Source of the DNA: Pelagomonas calceolata | Lineage: Eukaryota | NCBI GenBank assembly: GCA_918797485.1 | Contig: CAKKNE010000005.1 | Location: 4,960,001-5,024,000 of the forward strand | Length of the DNA: 64,000 nucleotides | Direction: 5' to 3' | Part shown: piece by piece, positions 4,609-57,248 of the stretch | Numbering within the stretch: position 1 is the stretch's first letter | How the letters are laid out: each line of letters starts with the position of its first letter | Position numbers and translations under genes: made by a program | The notes under the pieces: generated by a model | Told to the model about the DNA's origin: nothing | Databases searched by the model: none | The model's input: the letters and a program-made list of their open reading frames with translations, nothing else

Positions 4609-4775
4609 GACCGATCCCGGGGCCTTTGTCTCGTGTGTGCGCCTGCTCTGCGCTTTGATGGTCCCAGATTGTATTCACGGGAGTTATTGATCCTGTTCTC
4701 TCGTTTGCCGACCGCTGGTTGCCCACGCGCTGCACCCCAGGCTGCACCACTACCACGCCGCTCCAAGGGAACCGC

Positions 4776-5660
4776 ATGCGCAGCCGCGAAAAGATGTACC
4801 AAGCTTTCGCGCGGAACGACCCTGAGCTGCGCGCGCGGCGCAAGCTCGAGCGGGCGGCCGCGCGGCGCCGCAACGACCAGAACTGGGGCGCCATCTGGGC
4901 CGCGCCCGCAGCGGCGCCCGAGCCTGTCGCAGTGGTGCCGCCGCCCGCATCGCCTGACGACGCCGCGGCGCCGGCACCCGCGCCCGAAACCGCGGCTAGT
5001 GACGCCGAGCCAGCGGCGGCACTGGTTGCGCTTTTGCGAGCACGTGACGAGCCGGCGGCGGCGGCGGCGCTCTCGCACGAGGAAGCCGCGGCGCCACCGT
5101 CATTACACGACGACGCCGAGCCCGCGGCGGCGGAGCCGTCGCACTCGCCGCGTGACGACGCCGCCGCAAAAGCAAGAGCCTTCGCCCAGAAGCGCCAGCA
5201 GCACTACAACATGGCCGGGCTCCTAGGAAGGAAGTGGGATGAGGAAGACGAGATGGAGGACGACGACGCAGCGCCACCGCCACCACACGACGACGCCGCG
5301 GCGCCGTCGCCGCCGCCACCCTCGGAAGACGCCGCGCCACCACCGCCGCCGCACGAGTCGGACGACGAGTCCCCGCCGCTCCGCCTCCCGGCGACGGGCC
5401 AGACGGGCACGCAGTGGTCGCAGTGGACGACGGGCCCGGCGTCGCAGCGCGCGGCGTCGCAGTGGGCGTCGCCGCCGCCGCCGGAGTGGGACGACGCGCT
5501 CCGGCGGCGCCTGCGCGCCGCGGCGCCGGTCGACGCCGCGAACGCGGCCTGCGTGGCCTACGCCGCCGACGAGCGCGCGCGCGCCGCGCTGCCGACGATG
5601 AACGTGTCGCGCGGGGACGTGGACGTGCTGTTCGCGCCCGAGGAGGGGGCTTGGGACTAG
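4776..5660 (+). CDS. Low-complexity Pro/Ala/acidic protein with a phosphatase inhibitor-2-like segment
   Basis: Open frame from ATG 4776. FAQKRQQHYNM resembles the FxxKRKxHYNE helix of PP1 inhibitor-2. Confidence 0.55.
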   Translation: MRSREKMYQAFARNDPELRARRKLERAAARRRNDQNWGAIWAAPAAAPEPVAVVPPPASPDDAAAPAPAPETAASDAEPAAALVALLRARDEPAAAAALSHEEAAAPPSLHDDAEPAAAEPSHSPRDDAAAKARAFAQKRQQHYNMAGLLGRKWDEEDEMEDDDAAPPPPHDDAAAPSPPPPSEDAAPPPPPHESDDESPPLRLPATGQTGTQWSQWTTGPASQRAASQWASPPPPEWDDALRRRLRAAAPVDAANAACVAYAADERARAALPTMNVSRGDVDVLFAPEEGAWD

Positions 5661-26077: not shown

Positions 26078-26439
26078 ACGCGTAGTCGTATGACACAAAC
26101 CACCCTCTTGTAAGAACTTAGAACCGCAGCGACTTGGGGTGCTCATCGTTTCGTTACTAGGCACTAACGCCCAACAACTGACGTCAAACTAGCCCGGGCG
26201 GTGGCGGCGAGCGACGCCTCGGCCGCGCCGAAGGCGGGGGCCGGCGGCGGCGATCGCGCCGATGGCGTTCCGCTCGTGGACGCCGGCGCCGAGGCGCGCG
26301 GGTCCGTCGACGATGGTCGCGTCTGCGGCGCATCAAGGCGAAGATGATGGCGGGCAAGTGAGTCCTCTCTGGACGGCCGCGCGCGAGAGACCCCCTCCTC
26401 GTCCCGCATATAACGATGCACCTTACACAACCAGGGTTC

Positions 26440-26464
26440 GCTAGTGTCTTACTGGGGCGCTAGC
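26440..26464 (+). promoter_or_regulatory. CTAG-TGTCTTAC intergenic motif copy
   Basis: GCTAGTGTCTTACTGGGGCGCTAGC; 160 bp upstream of ATG 26624(+). Confidence 0.8.
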
Positions 26465-26623
26465 TCGATCGATGGACATCGCAGTGATTTAGAGGTCGTA
26501 CCCGTGGGTTCACTGCAACGAGGAAAGCCAGCGTTGGTGCAAGGCATCGCCACGACCACAAAGCTTTGTAACGCGACATCTGAGCCTGCAACCGCACATC
26601 TCAAGCACGAAACTGCAGCAGTC

Positions 26624-28939
26624 ATGGCGCCACCATGCATCGGCATCGACTTAGGTGCAGCAAAAACGATGGTCGTAGGAGAAACGGGCGAGATCGTGCG
26701 TAATGAGCTCGGCGGCCACAGTTCGGCGTCGCTCGTCGGCTTTAGTGGAGACGAGAGGTATGTGGGAGAGGGCGCCGTGGCGCAGCTCGCGACGAATGCC
26801 AAGAACACGGCGCGCATCGGCGAGCGCCTTCACGGCCGTGCCGAGGGTGGCGGCTTCACGGCGTTCTACGCCGGCGCCGAGACAGCCATTGCTGATGACG
26901 CTCTAGCAGCGGCACTACTGAGGAACGTCGGCTCATTAGCGAACAAAACCTTCGGCGGCGTCCAGGCGACGGCCCTAGTCGTGCCTAACGCCTGGGAGGA
27001 GTCGCAAATCGCCACGCTAGCTAGAGCGGCAGCAGCCGGGCTCGACGGTGGCGTGGAGTTTGTGAAGGCAGATTCATGCTTAAGGCTGGCCTACGAGAAG
27101 CGCCACGCGACGAACCTGGAGAAGGACGAGACTAGAGTTGTGGCCTTTGTGGACGTTGGTAGGTGTGCTGCCTCTTGCGTCGTGTGCTCCTTTACCCAGG
27201 AAGAATCGTCGATCCTAGCGTCCGAAGCTTCTACCGATGGCACTTACGCGGGCACCGCAGCCTTAGATGCGTTGGTCTACGACTACTTGCTCATAAAACT
27301 GCCGAAGGGCGTCGACAAACCGGTAGCAGGATCGAAGAAGGGTCTGCGACTACTAAATGCCTGTGAAAGATTGCGAGTACTCCTGTCAACCATGGATTTA
27401 GCTAAAGTGACCTGCGAGAACTTGGGGGAGGAAAGGGACGTGCCCCTAGAATTAACGAGAAAGGAGCTCGAGGAGGTCTGCGCGCCTGCGCTGAAGGGTT
27501 TATATCACTTGTTGGAACGAGCCAAAATGGGCGCCGGCATGGTCGTCGACGCCGTCGAACTGGTGGGGGGCGGGTCGCGCGTCTGTGCGGTCCGTAATTG
27601 CGCGGGCGAGGTCTTCGGCACGTCCACTTTCGGCGCGAAGATGGACGACGCGTCGTTAGCTCATGGGGCTGCCTTAGCTCTGGCGACGGAGCGCGACGCG
27701 CGGAAGAACGTCTGGTTGCAACGAGAGGCGCTTGTTGCCGCGCAATCGAGGTCTCATGAGAACACGAAGTTGCTGGACGAGGCGAAGGCAAACCTGGACA
27801 AGGAGGAGAAGGCCGCGGCGTTCAAGGCGCAAGAAGCGGCCGCGGAGAAACCGGAGAACGGCGACGGCGACGAGGCCCCGGTGCCCGCCGCGGAAGACGC
27901 GCCCGAGTCGACGCTGCAGATCCGCGTCCGCGTCCTCTCGCAAAAAGCTGAGGATTTGAAGGCGGACGAGCGGAAGGTGACTTCCGCACTAGAACAAGCC
28001 GCGGACGTCGCTGATAGAGCTGCGAAGGTCTTAGCCACAAGGCCCGAGACCGACGCGGTTGAGCTGAGGAAAGCCGAGGACGCCATGTGTGAGAGGGACG
28101 AAGGTGTGCGATTGGTCGCGGAGCAGCGGAACGCCCTCGAGACGTGTGTCTTGGAATTACGGGCCGCGAAGAACGGCTCGCACTACAAGCTTTTTGAGGA
28201 GAAGGCGGTGGAATTTGGTGACTTACTCCAGGCCGCCGAGGACTGGCTCTGGTCGGACGAGGCGTCGAACGCCGACGCCATCGCGCAGAAGAAGGAGCAG
28301 GTCCTCGCGGATGCCAAAGCTCTGGTACCGGAGTACTTCGCCAAGGTCGAGGCGGAGCGGTTAGCTACTGAAAAAGAACTAGAAAAGGAAGCGGCGACGG
28401 CGACGAACGAGGATGATGATGATGAGCGAAGGGAGGATCGCATCAACGCGGATACGCGAAAGTTGAAATTCGCCGACCGATTTCGATTGGTCGAGAAAAA
28501 TAAAGCGGAGGGCACGGAGTTATTTAAAGATGGCAATATTCATCATGCCGCCAAACGGTATAAGGACGCTCTAGGTCATGCCTCGAAGCTGCGGGAGTAC
28601 GACTTGGGACCCGACGACGCCGCGAAGACCAAAAAGATAAAGGTGGACTTACATGTGAACATGGCCCTGTGCTGGACGAAGCTCCAGAACAACGACCAAG
28701 CTTTAAAGAGTGCCGGCGAAGCCCTGGCCCTGGAACCGGCCCACCCGAAGGCCCTTTACCGAAGAGCCGCGCTCTACGAAAAAACCTCAAAATTCGACGA
28801 GGCCAAGGCCGACCTCAAACAGGTCTTGAAGGCCAACGAGGCCGACAAGGCCGCGCTTGCCCTCATGAAGCGCGTCGACGCGCAGCTCGCGCGGCAAAAG
28901 GCGAAAGCCAAAAAGATGGCGGCGAAGATGTTCGCCTAG
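26624..28939 (+). CDS. Hsp70/Hsp110-like protein with C-terminal TPR clamp
   Basis: IGIDLG, IVRNELGG, VAFVDVG, VELVGGGSRV, RNALE..AEDWLW (Hsp110 lid); KNKAEGTELFK..YKDAL, HVNMALCW, KALYRRA (TPR). Confidence 0.88.
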   Translation: MAPPCIGIDLGAAKTMVVGETGEIVRNELGGHSSASLVGFSGDERYVGEGAVAQLATNAKNTARIGERLHGRAEGGGFTAFYAGAETAIADDALAAALLRNVGSLANKTFGGVQATALVVPNAWEESQIATLARAAAAGLDGGVEFVKADSCLRLAYEKRHATNLEKDETRVVAFVDVGRCAASCVVCSFTQEESSILASEASTDGTYAGTAALDALVYDYLLIKLPKGVDKPVAGSKKGLRLLNACERLRVLLSTMDLAKVTCENLGEERDVPLELTRKELEEVCAPALKGLYHLLERAKMGAGMVVDAVELVGGGSRVCAVRNCAGEVFGTSTFGAKMDDASLAHGAALALATERDARKNVWLQREALVAAQSRSHENTKLLDEAKANLDKEEKAAAFKAQEAAAEKPENGDGDEAPVPAAEDAPESTLQIRVRVLSQKAEDLKADERKVTSALEQAADVADRAAKVLATRPETDAVELRKAEDAMCERDEGVRLVAEQRNALETCVLELRAAKNGSHYKLFEEKAVEFGDLLQAAEDWLWSDEASNADAIAQKKEQVLADAKALVPEYFAKVEAERLATEKELEKEAATATNEDDDDERREDRINADTRKLKFADRFRLVEKNKAEGTELFKDGNIHHAAKRYKDALGHASKLREYDLGPDDAAKTKKIKVDLHVNMALCWTKLQNNDQALKSAGEALALEPAHPKALYRRAALYEKTSKFDEAKADLKQVLKANEADKAALALMKRVDAQLARQKAKAKKMAAKMFA

Positions 28940-41083: not shown

Positions 41084-41755
41084 TTATCTCGGCGAGACCG
41101 TGATCTCCTCCTTGTCGGCCACCAAATCGCCGGCGATGAACGCGTTCCAGGACTCGATCGGCCAGACGAAGTTCGAGAACATGATCGTCAGCGCGAGCGG
41201 CACGTCGATGATGATCTCTTTTTCGGCGGGGTTCTTCGTCTTGGCGACCGTGCGCAGGTACTTGCGGCCCGCCGTGCCGATCCAGCCCGTCGTGTAGAGG
41301 AAGCCCAGGCCCGGGAGCACGAACTGCGGGAAGTACGTCGGGTCGCCGTTCGCGATGAGGTGCGGCAGGCCGTCCTTGCCACATAATAAGTTGGAGTCGG
41401 CGTAGCGCTTGAAGCGGTTGTTCGCCTGGTTCAGCGTCTGTTCCAGGGCGAGGTACGGCGGGCTTCCGGGCTCGTACTTCTTCATGCGGCCTTCCAGCGT
41501 GGCGACCGTCTTGCGCTGCCGCTTGCCGAACTGCTTCGACGTCGCGCAGTCCTCGAGCTGCTTGTAGTAGATCGAGCCGGGCTGGCCGCCCGCGGCGAGC
41601 GCCGCGTCGGAGCCGGCGAGCAGGGCGCCGCCGAGCGCGGCGGCGCCGGCGGCCCTCCGGAGCACGGCGCCGGTCTTCGGCGGCGCGGCCGTCATCGTCG
41701 GCGCCAGCCGCAGCGCCGAGGCGCCCGCGGCGAGGGCGACGAGGAGCCGGGCCAT
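41084..41755 (-). CDS. psaF: Photosystem I subunit III (PsaF), nucleus-encoded with tripartite presequence
   Basis: LLCGKDGLPHLI, FVLPGLGFLYTTGWIGTAGRKYL, EKEIIIDVPLA, EITVSPR. Confidence 0.96.
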   Translation of the reverse strand: MARLLVALAAGASALRLAPTMTAAPPKTGAVLRRAAGAAALGGALLAGSDAALAAGGQPGSIYYKQLEDCATSKQFGKRQRKTVATLEGRMKKYEPGSPPYLALEQTLNQANNRFKRYADSNLLCGKDGLPHLIANGDPTYFPQFVLPGLGFLYTTGWIGTAGRKYLRTVAKTKNPAEKEIIIDVPLALTIMFSNFVWPIESWNAFIAGDLVADKEEITVSPR

Positions 41756-42381
41756 CTTTACGCTACCTGTGAGGGGACGCGGTGTGATTTGACGCCCTTT
41801 TGGTTGCTGCGGTGCGTTTCGGGAGCCTCTCGTCGTCCGATGTCGAGTTCTGTTTCTTCTGAGTGCTCTTCCGGCCAGCGCAGCCTCAGTGTAGGCTCAG
41901 GGCCAGCGCGCCGCGCGGCGTGCGACAGCGCTATCAGTTTCTGAAGCGCGCCTCCGTAGCGCGCGCGCGGCTGAGAGACCTTCCAAGCAGGTGCCGCTTG
42001 AGTTCAGCTAACTCGTATCGCACGGCGATTTTTGGCCGCGAGCGGTGCTGGCGGCTGCAATAGTGGTCGATCGAACTCCTCGCGCCGCTCGGTTGACTTT
42101 TTTAGGGGCGCTGCTGTGCACCAAAAGCTGGTTGACTCCGCAGGATGCCGAGGTAGAGGTACTTTTGGTGAAAGATCGCGGTACTTTTACCCCACCCAAA
42201 GTACCTTACCTCATCGCTTGGAGGGCTCGAGCCCTAAAAGGCCGTGCGTATGGCGTCGAACGCCATGCGACCGCTGCAGGGAGACATGCTGCCCGTGTAA
42301 AGAGCCACGGCGCCGCGCCGAGCGCTCGGCAGACTCGTCGAAACGCACGCGGGGAAGAGGCACGAGATAAAGAAAAGCCAC

Positions 42382-51031: not shown

Positions 51032-54000
51032 CTACACGTTACTCGGCGTATCCAACCATTCCTGGGTGAGCTTCGACTTCAGCCGCGCCATAGCCTTCAG
51101 GCTCCCCGTTTGTGTTATGACGTCGTCGCTCTGCAAGCCAGAAACACTATCTTCTGCCGTTTGCTCCATGTCTCCGATGCACGCCATAAACTCCGCCTCG
51201 CCCTCCTTGAGGCCCCCGTACGCCTCCTGGAGCGCCTTCTGGTGGTACAATGACTTGCTCAGCATGCCGTGGATGCCGCGACCCCCGTCGCGCATCGGCT
51301 TGTGGGCCACTCTCTGCTTCTCGCGGGCGACGCGGAGGTCCTTGCACCGCGCCTTGTGCGCCTGCCAGTCGGCCTTTTGGTGATCGCGCGAGCAGTACGC
51401 GACGCATCGGCAGCCCCGACAGAAGAAAAGCTTTTGCGCGGGCGTTTCCACCACGCCGCAGTGCGCGCACGCCCGCGTGGTAGCGACCGCGCTGCGACCG
51501 CCGCCTTCGCCGTCGAGGGCGTCGGCCTGGGACGTCGGAGGAGTGACGCCCCGCGCCTCGAGCCTGCGGCGCGTGGCCGCGTCGAAAGTGTCCCAGCGGA
51601 AGCCGGCCTTCTCCGCGGACGTGAGCTTGTGCAGCCACCGCGCGACGCTGCTCCGCATGACGCCGCGACGGGCCTCCGCGGTTGCCGCGTCCTTGCGCGC
51701 GCAGCGGTCCAGGAGGAAGCGGCCGGACGCGGACGCGGCGAGGAGGTCTCGGACCGCGGCCGCCCAGGGCGCCGCGGCGCCCGCCGCGCCCTTGTAGAGC
51801 CGCGCGGCGGCGAAGATGGCGTCGCACGAAACCACGAGCGCCTCCTCGTCGAGGTCGATGTCGCCGCCGTTCTCGTCCGAGAGCGGGCTGTTCCCGTCAA
51901 GCGCGGCGAGCGCGTATGTCCTCAAGAAACCGCAGACGTCGCCCTCGGCCCGGTCGACCCAGAACTCGGGCGTGTGGAGATGCTCGCGGAACAGTCGCTG
52001 GAAGAGGTGGTGGTGGTCGCTCGACACCGCGACAATCACGGCGCAGGCCACGACCGCGCCGGGTTTCGTTGCGAAATCCGTGCCAAACTTCTCCCGCCGC
52101 CCCGCATCTTCGTCGCCCCAGCCGTAGCGACCGGTGCCGGCCATCCGACCCAACGCGTACTCGAGATAGCGCCCGCCCGCGTAGAGGCCGAGCTCGTGCC
52201 GGTCGGCGGACGCGAGACCGACGAGTCGCGCCGTCGCCGTGTCCCGGAGCTTGCGGCTGGCCGGGCCAACGCCCAGCGCAAGGCGCATCAGGACCGTGAC
52301 GGCAAAGCAACCATAACACCGGGGCGCCTCGTCGCGTTGCGCACTCGCGTCGTCGGGCTCGGCGCCCCGAATAACGGAAAAGGCTCGAGTCACCCCCTTC
52401 GCGCTCATCGAGGCGCCGCCCGAGCGGCGCGCCAGGTGCTCCCTCACGAACACGTCCTCGGCGTCCTCCTCTTCGCGGCACGGGTCTTCGTCGGCGTCGC
52501 AATCGTCGGCTGCGCTCCCGGTGAGCCGCGCCCGGCAGGCGCGGTCGCGGCGGTCGAGGCCGAAGACGTCCCAGCGCGGGGATTCGAGGAAGACGAGGCT
52601 CCGGAGGTCGTCCGACGCCGCGACGGCGCGAAGCGGCAGGCACCGCGCGATCTTGCGGAGCTCCTCCTCGACCATGCCCACCGCCACCTGGGCCCTCGCG
52701 TCGCGGTAGCCGCGCCGCACGACGTGGCAAACGGCGGCAACGGCAGAAACGACGTCGGTGCCGAACCGCGCCAACCGCTTCGGGGACCTCTCGCCCAGGT
52801 GCGCGACGACGTCCATCCGCAAGCGATCGAGCGCAGCCTCGATGCGAGGTCCTATCCCCCTCTTGTCGTCGCTCGCGAGCCAGTCTGACTCATCGACGTG
52901 CGACACGAGCAGCCACGAGCGGCTCGCCCATCGGGACTCCTCGAGGCGGTCCGCGATCGAGCGCCCGTCCACGATGATGCCGTCGCCAGCGCTGTCGCGC
53001 GCGAGCGGCGTCAGGATCTTCGTCGCCTCCATCGCGCCGCCGCTCGGGTCTAGCGCCAAGAGCGCGTCGGCCAGCCGGACGCGCGCGGTGCGCACGTCCG
53101 CCTGGGGCTCTTGGTCAAATTTCAGGTTCGAAGCTTTCGCGGATATCCTGGTCGAGTGAGGCGGCGCTAGTGCCACGGCGAATCGCTCCTTTGCTTTAAC
53201 GTAGGCCAGAACGGTGCCACGCGCGCCGTTCAAGTCCGCCCGTGATACGAGTCCGGTGATTTGTACGCCCCTGCCGACGTCGGCCGCGTCGATGGCTGCC
53301 CGCGCGTCCGCGACGGCTGTCTCGAGAACGGCGCGCGCCGGCCCGTTATAACCGGGTCCGAGGCTGCGCGCGTACCGACCGAGTAGCGCGCGGCAGCGCG
53401 AGAGCCTGGAGAGCGCATTCGCAAGCTCGCCTGCCTCGAAGTGGGCCCGCCGCGCGAGGTCGACGGCGCAGCGCAGCAGGGTCTCTGCCGCCCAGGGCTT
53501 GTCCTCCTCCATAAATACCTCGGCCAGCTTTGAGGCCTTATCTGCCGTGCGCGCCGTGCTCACGGCGTTCGTCACCCAGGCCGGGGGCGCCTCGGCGTAC
53601 CGCAACTGCTCGATGGCCGTGGCGGCAAATGCGGCGGACGCCTCCTGCTGCTTGCGTTGCGCGATGTTTAAGGCGGCGGCCTCCGAGATGTCATTCATGA
53701 TCGCGGCGTTGTCGAAACCCAGGCGCGGCGTCAAAACTTCTATCGCTATTGCCGCGTGTTTCGCGGTGCTGGAGAGGTGCTTTGCGTGCACGCCGGACCC
53801 CTGGAGCGCTTGGAATATGCATTTCGCTCCGTGAAGCCTGTCGAAAAGAGCGCTGATCAGCTGGCCCTCCGACGGAGGCGGCAGGCCCTGGGTCGGCATT
53901 CGTTTAATGGAAAACATGAAACCATCGTAGAAGGTACGGCGTTTGGCTTCGGTGTCCGCCCGGCAGCCCTGCGCGTAATCCAGGTACACTTTGCCGAGTT

Positions 54001-54130
54001 CCGGCATGTCAAACTCATCCGCGATTGCTGCAAGCTTTGTAAACTCGCGTCCAATTTCCTTAAGATTCAATATCCGGCCATAGTCGGTTTGCATAAGCAT
54101 GACATGAGCTGGATTTAGCCCCTCCATCAT
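51032..54130 (-). CDS. Large helical/TPR-like protein with C-terminal MYND zinc finger
   Basis: CAHCG..LFFCRGCRCVAYCSRDHQKADWQAHKARC; internal VQITGLVSRADLNGARGTV module. First ATGs at 54130/54127. Confidence 0.82.
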   Translation of the reverse strand: MMEGLNPAHVMLMQTDYGRILNLKEIGREFTKLAAIADEFDMPELGKVYLDYAQGCRADTEAKRRTFYDGFMFSIKRMPTQGLPPPSEGQLISALFDRLHGAKCIFQALQGSGVHAKHLSSTAKHAAIAIEVLTPRLGFDNAAIMNDISEAAALNIAQRKQQEASAAFAATAIEQLRYAEAPPAWVTNAVSTARTADKASKLAEVFMEEDKPWAAETLLRCAVDLARRAHFEAGELANALSRLSRCRALLGRYARSLGPGYNGPARAVLETAVADARAAIDAADVGRGVQITGLVSRADLNGARGTVLAYVKAKERFAVALAPPHSTRISAKASNLKFDQEPQADVRTARVRLADALLALDPSGGAMEATKILTPLARDSAGDGIIVDGRSIADRLEESRWASRSWLLVSHVDESDWLASDDKRGIGPRIEAALDRLRMDVVAHLGERSPKRLARFGTDVVSAVAAVCHVVRRGYRDARAQVAVGMVEEELRKIARCLPLRAVAASDDLRSLVFLESPRWDVFGLDRRDRACRARLTGSAADDCDADEDPCREEEDAEDVFVREHLARRSGGASMSAKGVTRAFSVIRGAEPDDASAQRDEAPRCYGCFAVTVLMRLALGVGPASRKLRDTATARLVGLASADRHELGLYAGGRYLEYALGRMAGTGRYGWGDEDAGRREKFGTDFATKPGAVVACAVIVAVSSDHHHLFQRLFREHLHTPEFWVDRAEGDVCGFLRTYALAALDGNSPLSDENGGDIDLDEEALVVSCDAIFAAARLYKGAAGAAAPWAAAVRDLLAASASGRFLLDRCARKDAATAEARRGVMRSSVARWLHKLTSAEKAGFRWDTFDAATRRRLEARGVTPPTSQADALDGEGGGRSAVATTRACAHCGVVETPAQKLFFCRGCRCVAYCSRDHQKADWQAHKARCKDLRVAREKQRVAHKPMRDGGRGIHGMLSKSLYHQKALQEAYGGLKEGEAEFMACIGDMEQTAEDSVSGLQSDDVITQTGSLKAMARLKSKLTQEWLDTPSNV

Positions 54131-54315
54131 CGCGATGTGCCCGGCAGCAGCGATGAGGCCTGTGCTGCCAGCATGGCGTCGCTCTCCCAATATTACAAGC
54201 TGAAAAACTTCGGCGTCGAAAAATGGACGATCACAGCGATCGAGCGAGCAGGCTGCAGCGACGAATGCAAACAAATATGCCTCTGCTGCCGCCACCACCC
54301 AGCTTGGCTTGCCTT

Positions 54316-54339
54316 GCTAGTGTCTTACAAACCGCTAGC
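54316..54339 (+). promoter_or_regulatory. CTAG-TGTCTTAC intergenic motif copy
   Basis: GCTAGTGTCTTACAAACCGCTAGC; 186 bp from ATG 54130(-) and 244 bp from ATG 54583(+). Confidence 0.8.
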
Positions 54340-54582
54340 CGTGATCCCTCCGGCAGATATCCTCCCGAGCAAAGACCCGTACGCGACGAGCTCCCGCCTA
54401 AAAAAGAATTGCCAAGCGCCGGGTGCCTGCCAGTTGTCTGCGCTGCGCACAGCGCAGATCATAGCAAAGCACGCGCGACGCACGGGGCAGCCCGCATTCG
54501 TAACGATCGCTGCGGATGGCCAGCCGACGCGTACGACGAACCGCGGGCCCGCTCGGGCAGCCCTGATGGCTGAGCAGACAAT

Positions 54583-57060
54583 ATGAGCACGAAACCGCGC
54601 CCCCACCCGCGCGGCGTCCAGTACCGCAAGAAGAAGCCGAGATCCATACAAGTGGCGCCGGCTGGTGGGAGAAGGAGCCGTCGAAGCCTCAACGAAACGA
54701 AGGAGGACGACGACGACGAGGAGGGCGGCAGACGGATCGTAGATGATTTTGACGAGGCTTTTGATGATGATGATGAAGATTATGGTGCTGTTTGTTGCGG
54801 TCTGGTCAAACTAAACGCCGCGCAAGCAGAAGTCCCGTGGGGCCGCTGGCACGCGAGGTTGGAGTCGAATATTGCCCTGTTTCTTATCTTATCCCTAACC
54901 TTTTTCGACATAACGAAGATGGCCCTGGACATGATTTATAAGCTCAAGTTGGAGGAGGATAGTAATTGGGAGTTAGTCGGTTACCTCACTTCAGCAGTCT
55001 TCGCGGTCGAGTTTTTTTTCCATCTGTACTGCCACGCGGATGTCTACAGCGTGAAGCACTTCTTCGAGATACGGGCGAACCAGATCGACGGCGTCGTGGT
55101 GACGTTGGACGCCATGTCCTACACGTTGGGGGCCGCGGCCGGTGCGGGTGGTGCTTTGGGCGCCGTGGCTTCTTCGGGCCGAGCATTACGACTCCTACGA
55201 CTCTTGAGATTACTACGACTACTACGAGCGGCAAGAGCAGCTCGCGCATTAAACCGGAAGAAACCCTTATCTACTTATGATCCATTAGTTGTCTGCGAGG
55301 AGGGCGATGTAGATACGGCGAAAAGGTTCATGGAGCCCGGTGTCAATCGGGACCGGTTCTGGTGTCTCAGTGACTCCGGCGAGTCGCCCTTGTACTTGGC
55401 AGCCAAAAGGGGCAGACATGGTGTGGTGAAAGCCATCGTGCGATCTGGCTCCCCTCGCGCGAAGGAGGCGGTGGAATTGCGAGATCATATATTGGGCGCG
55501 ACGCCGGTGTTTGTGGCGGCGCTCCATGCGCACCGAAAGGCCTGTCGGGAGCTGGCTATCCACGGGAGGGCGGATCTCACGAGCAAGCCCACTATGCATG
55601 ATGAGTTCAGAAAAGTATCTGCTGAAGAAGTGATAAAACATCGGTTGTGGCCCGACATCCTTCAAGCGGCGGCGAAGCAGCGAGCTGCGGACGCCGAGCA
55701 GGCGCGGAAAGATGAGCTCAAACGACAGCGCGAGGAGCAGCAACGGCTCCAAGAGCTCGAGAGAAGGAAAAGGTTACAGCTCGATAGCAAGGCCGGGAAG
55801 CGACGGGAGTTCGGAAGGGTCATGTGGAAAGTGACGTCCCAGGAGATCACAAGACGTACTAAGAGGGCCTTTTTGAAAATATGTGGCAATCTGTATACGC
55901 CCGGGGAAGATGGGTTAAGGGGTACGCGAGCCGCCTGGTTGAGATTACGGAAGCAGCGCGACTGGCAACATAGGTTAAAACAGCAGCAGGATCATGTGGT
56001 GAGGCCCTCGACCGCTGAAGTAAGGGAGAAGGACGCCAGTCGTCGAAGAAGGAAGAACGTCGCGCGACTCGGCATCAACTGGACGACGAAACGCCCCATC
56101 ACGCCCTGGCGTAAAAGATCGGAAAAGCGGCCCATGACCCGAGACAGACTGTTGAGGTTCTGGTCCACCGGTGGAAGGGGCGGCAATGATGAACATCCTC
56201 CGACCATCGGGAGGCGGGCGGCCGTCTCCATCGCCTTGCAGGACAAGGAAGCGGAAGCTACCTGGGCGACGGAACTGCAGCATGATGCGGAAGGGATTCC
56301 TCGCACGATTGAAGGGTCCGCTTATCGGCATGTGCTGAGGCACCCGATGTCCGATTTCAAAAGAGAACAAACATTGAAGAAGGACTCGAATACCATCTTT
56401 ACGGTCTTTTTAGATGAGTTACGATACGCCGCATCTCTAGCTCGACGTAGATTACCGGGATCTCGCAAGTCGACGCGAGGCTCCGAAACACCGAGGTCTC
56501 CCTCGAGGCCCTGGACGCCCTTCTCGAACCTGTTCAGCATGACGCCGCGGTTCCGACGACCCATGACGTCCAAGTCCGTGCGGTTTGAGGATGAGCCGCC
56601 GATGACTCCTGCCAGTTGGCGTAGCAGACCGAGGACCGGCCAATCGTTAACAGGCTTCGAGAGTCCATCACGACCGTTGACGGGGACCTCGACACCACGG
56701 CCGAGAACGTCCGGAAGTGTGCGCTTCGCCGACGAGGTCGAGGTCGAGGACCTCGAAGATCCGCTCGAGATGATGTCCCAGACTGCACCTCCAGTACTAT
56801 ATTCGAACGAGGAACTCTTCAATTCTACGGATCCGCTCGAGAAGAAGGTGGCGAGGATGGAGCTGCACTTCCGGACGGATGTGGATGAGTGGCTCACGGA
56901 AAATGGTACTTCCTCACCAGTCAAATACGAGCAGTTTGCCAACACGATGACGGACGTGTACATGGCGAAGCTGGATGGGATGGAGGGGACGCCGGCCGTG
57001 CGAGCCGTGCGGAAGCGCGTGATTGCGCAGATCGAGCAGCTGGCCGTCGGGAGCCTCTGA
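54583..57060 (+). CDS. Voltage-sensor-domain protein with ankyrin repeats and BAG-like C-terminus
   Basis: S2 FAVEFFFHLY, S3 NQIDGVVV, S4 RALRLLRLLRLLRLLRAARAAR; ankyrin GESPLYLAAKRGRHGVV and GATPVFVAALH; C-terminus AKLDGMEG..VRAVRKRVIAQIEQL. Confidence 0.8.
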   Translation: MSTKPRPHPRGVQYRKKKPRSIQVAPAGGRRSRRSLNETKEDDDDEEGGRRIVDDFDEAFDDDDEDYGAVCCGLVKLNAAQAEVPWGRWHARLESNIALFLILSLTFFDITKMALDMIYKLKLEEDSNWELVGYLTSAVFAVEFFFHLYCHADVYSVKHFFEIRANQIDGVVVTLDAMSYTLGAAAGAGGALGAVASSGRALRLLRLLRLLRLLRAARAARALNRKKPLSTYDPLVVCEEGDVDTAKRFMEPGVNRDRFWCLSDSGESPLYLAAKRGRHGVVKAIVRSGSPRAKEAVELRDHILGATPVFVAALHAHRKACRELAIHGRADLTSKPTMHDEFRKVSAEEVIKHRLWPDILQAAAKQRAADAEQARKDELKRQREEQQRLQELERRKRLQLDSKAGKRREFGRVMWKVTSQEITRRTKRAFLKICGNLYTPGEDGLRGTRAAWLRLRKQRDWQHRLKQQQDHVVRPSTAEVREKDASRRRRKNVARLGINWTTKRPITPWRKRSEKRPMTRDRLLRFWSTGGRGGNDEHPPTIGRRAAVSIALQDKEAEATWATELQHDAEGIPRTIEGSAYRHVLRHPMSDFKREQTLKKDSNTIFTVFLDELRYAASLARRRLPGSRKSTRGSETPRSPSRPWTPFSNLFSMTPRFRRPMTSKSVRFEDEPPMTPASWRSRPRTGQSLTGFESPSRPLTGTSTPRPRTSGSVRFADEVEVEDLEDPLEMMSQTAPPVLYSNEELFNSTDPLEKKVARMELHFRTDVDEWLTENGTSSPVKYEQFANTMTDVYMAKLDGMEGTPAVRAVRKRVIAQIEQLAVGSL

Positions 57061-57248
57061 CTCTGAGCGGCTCGCGGCGCTATCGAGCGGGCGTCGCGTC
57101 GACCTCCACGCCATCGACGCGGCGCCTGCTCGATAGCGTGGCGGTGTGGTTTCTCGGCCGCACGGCCGCATCCACCGAGAACGGAGGACTGTGGCTCTCG
57201 GATCGTGTAACAATGTGTGAAATTAGTCGGGGGGAATCGGATCTATAT

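Follow-up and report, generated by a model that had tools for sequence, protein, structure and literature searches.

The 64,000-nucleotide stretch of Pelagomonas calceolata DNA analysed here (contig CAKKNE010000005.1, positions 4,960,001 to 5,024,000; hereafter the window, in whose numbering all coordinates are given) contains on its plus strand an open reading frame (ORF; P0001) of 825 amino acids (aa) that runs as a single exon from the ATG at 54583 to the stop codon at 57060, and whose product joins a voltage-sensor domain (VSD) to ankyrin repeats. Its neighbours, a MYND-finger gene on one side and an acyl-CoA dehydrogenase gene on the other, are encoded on the opposite strand, and the window, with a G+C content of about 63%, is eukaryotic and photosynthetic by its content, encoding Nuf2, TRAPP and PsaF among other proteins. 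An earlier note, made from the letters alone, had described an S1-S4 VSD followed directly by ankyrin repeats, and both parts were recovered above the Pfam cut-offs, i.e. Ion_trans (PF00520) at aa 98-223 with 42.1 bits (cut-off 25) and Ank_2 at aa 237-334 with 29.2 bits (cut-off 27.3). The Ion_trans match covers profile positions 4-115 of 241, which correspond to the S1-S4 half of the profile. NCBIfam gave no match for P0001.

The four predicted transmembrane helices, all encoded on the plus strand, span aa 96-119 (S1, 54868..54939), aa 129-154 (S2, 54967..55044), aa 164-186 (S3, 55072..55140) and aa 199-226 (S4, 55177..55260). They are preceded by an N-terminus that, by charge counts, is basic over aa 1-40 and then acidic over aa 41-70 (54583..54792) and that would lie on the cytoplasmic side; the acidic run is also present in the relatives P0160, P0019, P0042 and P0005, which are described below. 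S1 carries the family-invariant D109, together with K112 and D116, which are unconserved. In S2, F140 occupies the charge-transfer position, E143 is the counter-charge, and Gly133 stands where Kv and Nav channels carry an outer acid. S3 contains D169 and, at +7, D176. S4 shows an arginine at every third residue (positions 200, 203, 206, 209, 212, 215, 218 and 221, with mixed codons), followed by R225-K226-K227, and it has no tryptophan. D109, D169, D176, R209 and R215 were invariant in all seven VSD rows aligned; the F140 position was Phe in six of eight rows and Tyr in two, the E143 position was Glu or Asp in all eight, and the position seven residues before F140 was Gly or Ser in all eight. 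Comparison of the VSD with solved folds was limited to sequence, and the closest among the best 60 of 182 PDB matches were domain IV of Cav3 (42 bits), other Cav/Nav domains, Ci-VSP (28.7 bits) and TPTE2 (26.1 bits). F140, E143 and D169 line up with Cav3 residues, D109 pairs with an Asn in the middle of Cav3 S1, and Ala takes the place of the S2-S3 Trp found in the Cav3 WNxxD sequence. Taken together, the predicted helices, the period-3 charges of S4, the S2 aromatic residue and the inner counter-charges of S2 and S3 are all present, as in a voltage-sensor domain.

The description of S4 in the earlier note as unusually long was only half confirmed, since the eight period-3 arginines are there but the length is not exceptional. 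The six S4 charges of Cav3.1 domain IV find their equivalents in R200-R215, nothing in that domain corresponds to R218, and R221 aligns with an Arg located after S4, R218 and R221 both lying in an Ala-rich extension. Because R200-R215 alone match the Cav3.1 domain IV charges, the gating part of S4 is of ordinary length. Downstream of S4 the highest 19-residue hydropathy value was 1.11, located inside an ankyrin repeat, and no TxG[YF]G pore motif was found; because no 19-residue stretch after S4 exceeds that value, an S5-P-S6 pore module is absent. Similarly, no phosphatase family was present among the seven Pfam matches at E<=1, and no PTEN-like phosphatase or C2 domain follows S4, which agrees with the earlier statement that neither a pore nor a phosphatase domain is evident.

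The ankyrin domain extends over about aa 228-368 (55264..55686, plus strand) and comprises three repeats and a capping helix pair, as supported by the Pfam match, by model pLDDT (predicted local distance difference test) values of 77-93 and by a VIA-align fold match to solved ankyrins (Z 15.8, root-mean-square deviation 2.8, 127 aligned residues). A two-domain model built from 13 sequences (pLDDT 74; predicted template-modelling score, pTM, 0.51) contained four helices with S4 reaching aa 226, ankyrin hairpins from aa 234, i.e. about 8 residues beyond S4, and one long helix at aa 357-419; the Foldseek and VIA-align rows for this model were ankyrin-type chains throughout. In addition, an Atlas model of aa 85-232 matched an Ion_trans model with a template-modelling (TM) score of 0.71 across 129 residues, the Atlas feature scores being all below 0.9 and therefore leads only, and a single-sequence fold of the protein was poor (pLDDT 43). 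Structure prediction thus returned the four helices expected of a VSD.

To follow transcription of the gene, we used four stranded poly(A) RNA runs from one sample, in which splice joints were listed from 3 reads up. Reads fell in every bin of the ORF, their first mates mapping to the minus strand, and the mate-strand pattern was reversed in a neighbouring minus-strand gene. No splice joint was found within the ORF in these four runs, and the three joints listed were all at 57100-57150, in a repeat beyond the stop codon. Contigs from four further runs gave a second set, in which the assignment of X1, X2 and X6 as RNA is a guess made by the tool; X1 and X2 cover about 54437-57100 with no differences and no gaps, X6 consists of two pieces 4 bases apart, and X15 of short pieces. 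Because stranded reads cover the ORF without a splice joint, there is no sign of a hidden pore exon; a pore-encoding exon in transcripts, which the earlier note had named as fatal to its reading, was thus not found, given the continuous ORF, the joint-free reads and the gap-free contigs X1 and X2.

Related GT...AG insertions of 128-149 nucleotides, 70-100% alike, split the gene in sister lineages at codons ~253 and ~350 (metagenome loci L005:850-977, L005:1266-1414, L001:1126-1263, L006:~2170-2300 and L008:1-109), and the copy of the gene in the window is free of them. They appear to be introner-like intron gains; introners have been described in P. calceolata (10.1101/2021.10.25.465678). The short repeat at 57092-57147, just 3' of the stop codon, attracted hundreds of partly fitting reads per run, which come from elsewhere in the transcriptome, and it has 19 bases in common with the sister-lineage insertions. 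Small-share marine RNA runs did not count as evidence of habitat.

The close relatives are eight metagenome loci, of which L002 and L003 are 96% and 75% identical by alignment, respectively. When 1.84 billion representatives were searched with a profile, 1100 matched, and among the best 150, which were examined, VSD and ankyrins were matched in one stretch in P0005, P0019, P0042 and P0126. By cluster look-up, P0019 and P0042 come from Pelagophyceae sp. CCMP2097, where both are annotated as hypothetical proteins, and P0160, from the cluster of P0004, is an 'Ion transport domain-containing protein' of Aureococcus anophagefferens. The identity to the window protein was 41% for the Aureococcus protein and 34, 31 and 25-26% for the others. 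The VSD-ankyrin join occurs in Aureococcus anophagefferens, in the two Pelagophyceae sp. CCMP2097 proteins and in further marine records over a range of 25-75% identity. The survey of homologues suggested in the earlier note therefore located the same join in two other pelagophytes. Of the 241 positions of the Ion_trans profile, the match extends no further than 115-116 in the window protein and in L002, L003, P0004, P0005, P0160 and P0019, and no further than 112 in P0042, ankyrins following in each case, and no pore was found in any VSD-ankyrin member examined. The S4 ladder has eight arginines in the Aureococcus protein and seven in P0042. P0126/P0159, which has no Pfam Ion_trans match, is the least secure family member, and as a seven-row tree had one starred branch and long rows, orthology is claimed for the window and L003 only. 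Viral and prokaryote collections yielded no relatives; word-index searches (453-1588 aa) recovered no family member, with 0 of 7989 candidates in one search and, in a second, 1 of 7986, an unrelated ankyrin protein, a result that is uninformative since full-length relatives exist.

Comparison with L002 gave ratios of non-synonymous to synonymous substitution (dN/dS, Nei-Gojobori) of 0.039 overall, 0.038 for the VSD and 0.015 for the ankyrins. Synonymous sites were near saturation, yet the arginine ladder was identical in the window, L002 and L003. These ratios show purifying selection. In P0160, aa 622-665 hold a Rdx/SelW-like domain in place of the RPxT/BAG tail, which may be a gene-model fusion and was left out of account, and P0014, on a 914-nucleotide contig, reads as a PP2C fragment followed by a VSD and may be a mis-called gene.

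The ankyrin domain is followed by a long charged helix (aa 357-419; 55651..55839, plus strand), which the earlier note had taken for a coiled coil. That assignment was weakened, as 47% of the residues are charged and hydrophobic residues occupy a/d positions at a fraction of 0.33 at best; because of this high charge and the few heptad hydrophobics, the segment would be a spacer resembling a single alpha-helix rather than a dimerising coiled coil. It leads into a basic middle region (aa 421-625; 55843..56457, plus strand) with no Pfam match, in which a block RP[IV][ST]PWR..RPxTR.RL is common to P0160 and P0019. The first part of this region (aa 421-440; 55843-55900), whose equivalent reads LRHTFKKW in P0042 and RGAWLRW in P0019, has no Pfam match and bears a loose resemblance to the centrin-binding Sfi1 repeat.

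The RPxT-rich character of the tail reported earlier was confirmed. Eight RPx[S/T] motifs lie at aa 474-710 (56002..56712, plus strand) against 0.67 expected, none of 1000 shuffles reached eight, and none of the 31 other ORFs of the window gave p<0.05. Observed and expected numbers across the family were 8/0.68 in P0001, 10/0.57 in P0019, 3/0.30 in P0160 and 2/0.27 in P0042. Seven of the eight motifs fit RPx[ST][AGPS] and two fit RPx[ST]P, which have been reported as the motifs of mammalian CDKL5 and of the Chlamydomonas flagellar kinase LF5, respectively (PMC12711092).

Two SVRF sequences, which the earlier note had compared with docking motifs of protein phosphatase 1 (PP1), are indeed present at 56575..56586 and 56716..56727 (plus strand). 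The strict RVxF pattern is [RK]-x(0,1)-[VI]-x-[FW] in a disordered region. Only the first sequence, preceded by K664, fits it, and one match in the tail is about the number expected by chance (p=0.43). An RVxF motif is kept in L003 and reads RVSF in P0019, and the tails of P0160 and P0042 have none; these motifs hint only weakly at PP1 docking.

The BAG-like end (aa 751-824; 56833..57054, plus strand), found in the close clade of the window only, is weak. Three helices were predicted (pLDDT 56-70), and the region taken alone scored 22.2 bits (E 2e-4), but the Pfam BAG match at aa 765-820 had 17.9 bits within the whole protein, and the scores of 22.2 and 21.3 bits also fall below the cut-off of 23.4. 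BAG5 was the first Foldseek row but with E 0.42 and among haemoglobin rows, and a sequence search found no BAG structures. When compared by spacing with the Hsp70-binding residues of human BAG1 (E212, D222, R237 and Q245; PMC6013550), D798 and R810 are kept, whereas T788/N787 stand at the Glu and E818 at the Gln. The BAG-like end is absent from P0160, P0019 and P0042, and it is a late, lineage-specific addition outside the core output of the family.

When compared with known systems, the protein resembles TMEM266 (HVRP1, C15orf27) in having a pore-less S1-S4 domain and a long non-enzymatic C-terminus. TMEM266 is described as free of proton current and proposed to confer voltage sensitivity on a separate effector, which these reports give as not known (PMC4148356, PMC6392501). 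TMEM266 has RxWRxxR, lacks the S1 Asp and has an S4 that continues into a coiled coil (PMC4148356, PMC4969798); in contrast, the window protein has no such Trp, has the S1 Asp and carries ankyrins after S4. Ci-VSP and TPTE2 share the arrangement of a VSD, a short basic linker and a folded cytoplasmic domain, which is an enzyme in them and an ankyrin binding module in the window protein. Cav3 (T-type) domain IV, the best sequence match, has its six S4 charges in register with those of the window protein, which differs in being single-domain, in lacking S5-P-S6, and in carrying an Asp where Cav3 has an Asn in S1 and another where it has a Ser in S3. Channels of the TRPA/TRPV/TRPN and AKT1 types also combine a VSD-like domain and ankyrin repeats in a single chain. 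In TRP channels, however, the ankyrins precede S1, in plant AKT1-type channels they lie far after S6, and both have a pore. The nearest stramenopile precedent is the pore-less VSD-cyclase of Phytophthora, which together with those of alveolates shows a VSD without pore homology joined to a cytoplasmic domain, one of them being on the flagellum, but there the effector is a nucleotide cyclase and ankyrins are not described (PMC12223298).

The relatives had been catalogued under automatic names only. The literature searched, mainly open-access, contained no account of ankyrins joined to a VSD, the accession numbers looked for appeared in no paper, and the term 'ankyrin' is absent from the main text of the reviews PMC13095418 and PMC10377628 and of PMC12749960. 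A 2023 review gives as VSD outputs a pore, an exchanger, a cyclase, a phosphatase or the domain's own proton path (PMC10651576).

Since the join of a pore-less VSD to ankyrins is genuine, is transcribed without splicing and is conserved in pelagophytes, our leading reading, held with somewhat more belief than doubt, is that the protein works as a non-conducting voltage-to-scaffold transducer or switch, possibly flagellar. Since the VSD residues are intact, S4 would be expected to shift on depolarisation; through the short basic linker (R225-K227), this shift might pull on the ankyrin domain or tilt it and so make it bind or let go of a partner. This coupling could be analogous to that of Ci-VSP, in which basic residues of the VSD-effector linker couple S4 to the enzyme (PMC12337349). 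Conduction is not expected because the arginine ladder is unbroken and the Hv Trp is absent; gating-pore currents are usually found in VSDs missing S4 charges (PMC10651576), and no charge is missing here. The charged helix would serve as a spacer bearing the basic, phosphorylatable tail. Because the RPx[S/T] motifs fit the CDKL5/LF5 consensus, a flagellar protein is hinted at, and the weakest step, proposed only tentatively, is that a flagellar kinase of the CDKL5/LF5 type phosphorylates the tail, in which case the protein would be located at the flagellum. The earlier note had envisaged a voltage-to-scaffold/chaperone transducer; the scaffold arm is retained here and the chaperone arm is weak, given two of four Hsp70-binding residues and a BAG score under the cut-off.

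Several observations weigh against this reading. Confidence in the model is lowest at S4 (pLDDT 52-58), and with a pTM of 0.51 the VSD-ankyrin geometry is not fixed by it. The equivalents of R215 and D233 are spaced by 17, 17, 17, 17, 20, 12, 11 and 11 residues in eight rows, short throughout, and the spread of 9 residues counts against one rigid coupling. S4 is interrupted in P0019 and keeps about five period-3 charges in P0159. Traits of Hv channels (the S1 Asp, the small residue seven positions before F140 and the second S3 Asp) are conserved. As for the tail, RPx[ST] is absent from P0159 and P0005, whose tails are probably cut; the shuffle test overstates the excess because tandem repeats are counted in P0019 and L003; and a flagellated stage is described as unobserved in Aureococcus, which nevertheless has many ciliary genes (PMC4736243).

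The Hv-like traits raise the question of a non-canonical voltage-gated proton channel, as the earlier note had also offered, in which the VSD would conduct protons via the S1 Asp and the ankyrins and tail would anchor or regulate it. Like Hv1, the protein has a pore-less VSD, an S2 without the outer acid and a mid-S1 Asp, the invariant D109, which would be the equivalent of Hv1 Asp112; the Gly or Ser seven residues before F140 recalls Hv1 Ser143, which replaces the Shaker acid (PMC4969798), and D176, the second Asp of S3, does not vary. Aureococcus is reported to have no canonical Hv genes (PMC10377628), the Hv class is on none of 81 Aureococcus rows of supplement 3 of PMC12749960, a table that may have no such class, and the case of an Hv-like mollusc protein that also lacks the Trp has yet to be settled. 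Nevertheless, RxWRxxR is absent from S4 in six of six proteins and in L003, whereas protist Hv are reported to keep RxWRxxRxxH (PMC10377628), and S4 has six to eight arginines instead of the three of Hv1. No Asp is present at +11 from the inner S3 Asp, the spacing of Hv1 Asp174/Asp185 (PMC4969798), this position being Y/L/V/I/S in eight rows with the Asp at +7 instead. In both the window protein and L003, K112 is a turn away from D109, and a 600-residue ankyrin-bearing tail sets the protein further apart from Hv1. Among the best 60 of 182 PDB sequence matches to the VSD, Cav3 domain IV and then Ci-VSP were nearest, whereas the absence of Hv1 from these 60, as from a separate set of 41 matches, says little either way; the unbroken ladder argues against a gating-pore path. 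A proton channel is therefore unlikely although far from negligible, the signature having failed while the invariant S1 Asp leaves a proton leak possible.

Alternatively, the VSD might be an auxiliary subunit that packs in trans on a separate pore channel and makes it voltage-dependent, the ankyrins keeping the two together. The domain is of the Cav/Nav type and ends where the S4-S5 linker of Cav3 begins, and the Aureococcus list has many short K2P/KCa/Kv-like, CatSper-like and Cav-like entries as candidate partners. This option is improbable, as no Ion_trans match was found in 28 other ORFs of the window (E<=1e-4) or in 5 neighbours, and co-expressed TMEM266 is reported to have left Hv1 unaltered (PMC6392501). 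Slightly less probable again is a VSD that no longer senses voltage and only anchors the ankyrin scaffold in the membrane. The disrupted S4 of P0019, the reduced one of P0159, the weakly modelled S4 and the Ala in place of the Cav3 WNxxD Trp would fit such an inert anchor, but the ladder is unchanged across the window, L002 and L003 despite near-saturated synonymous sites and persists in the Aureococcus protein, which is 41% identical, and the counter-charges are invariant. Finally, the intron-like insertions of the sister lineages imply that splicing occurs in the family, so that an artefact or a broken Cav-type gene with its pore in another exon had to be considered. It is refuted for the isoform observed by the continuous ORF, the joint-free reads, the gap-free contigs, the join in two other pelagophyte genomes and the dN/dS of 0.039, and it is exceedingly improbable overall, room being left only for a rare isoform below the 3-read listing threshold.

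Under the preferred voltage-to-scaffold reading, the pelagophyte family might represent a new class of VSD output in which S4 is wired to an ankyrin binding domain and voltage would govern protein-protein contacts without pore or enzyme, probably at the flagellar membrane and under control of a CDKL5-type kinase, a composite proposal that we regard as possible but rather more doubtful than the reading itself. Because the VSD-ankyrin join names a concrete non-enzymatic effector, voltage-switched protein binding becomes directly testable. If correct, tools for voltage-gated recruitment could be modelled on this natural protein, which would also indicate how electrical signals may serve marine picoalgae; should it turn out to conduct protons, it would represent a proton channel free of the Trp signature in a lineage reported to be without Hv.

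As to the surroundings of the gene, the MYND/TPR gene at 51032-54316 (minus strand) separates the VSD-ankyrin gene from a nucleoside-hydrolase gene in the window and in L002, whereas in L003 and L004 the nucleoside-hydrolase gene adjoins the VSD-ankyrin gene without the intervening MYND/TPR gene. Elsewhere in the window, the gene of the photosystem I subunit PsaF (41087-41896, minus strand) sits among nuclear genes, the ORF at 26414-28936 (plus strand) has a C-terminal TPR joined to a divergent Hsp70-like domain (80.6 bits), and the ORF at 4659-5657 (plus strand) gave a match resembling protein phosphatase inhibitor-2 with 24.3 bits, slightly below the cut-off.

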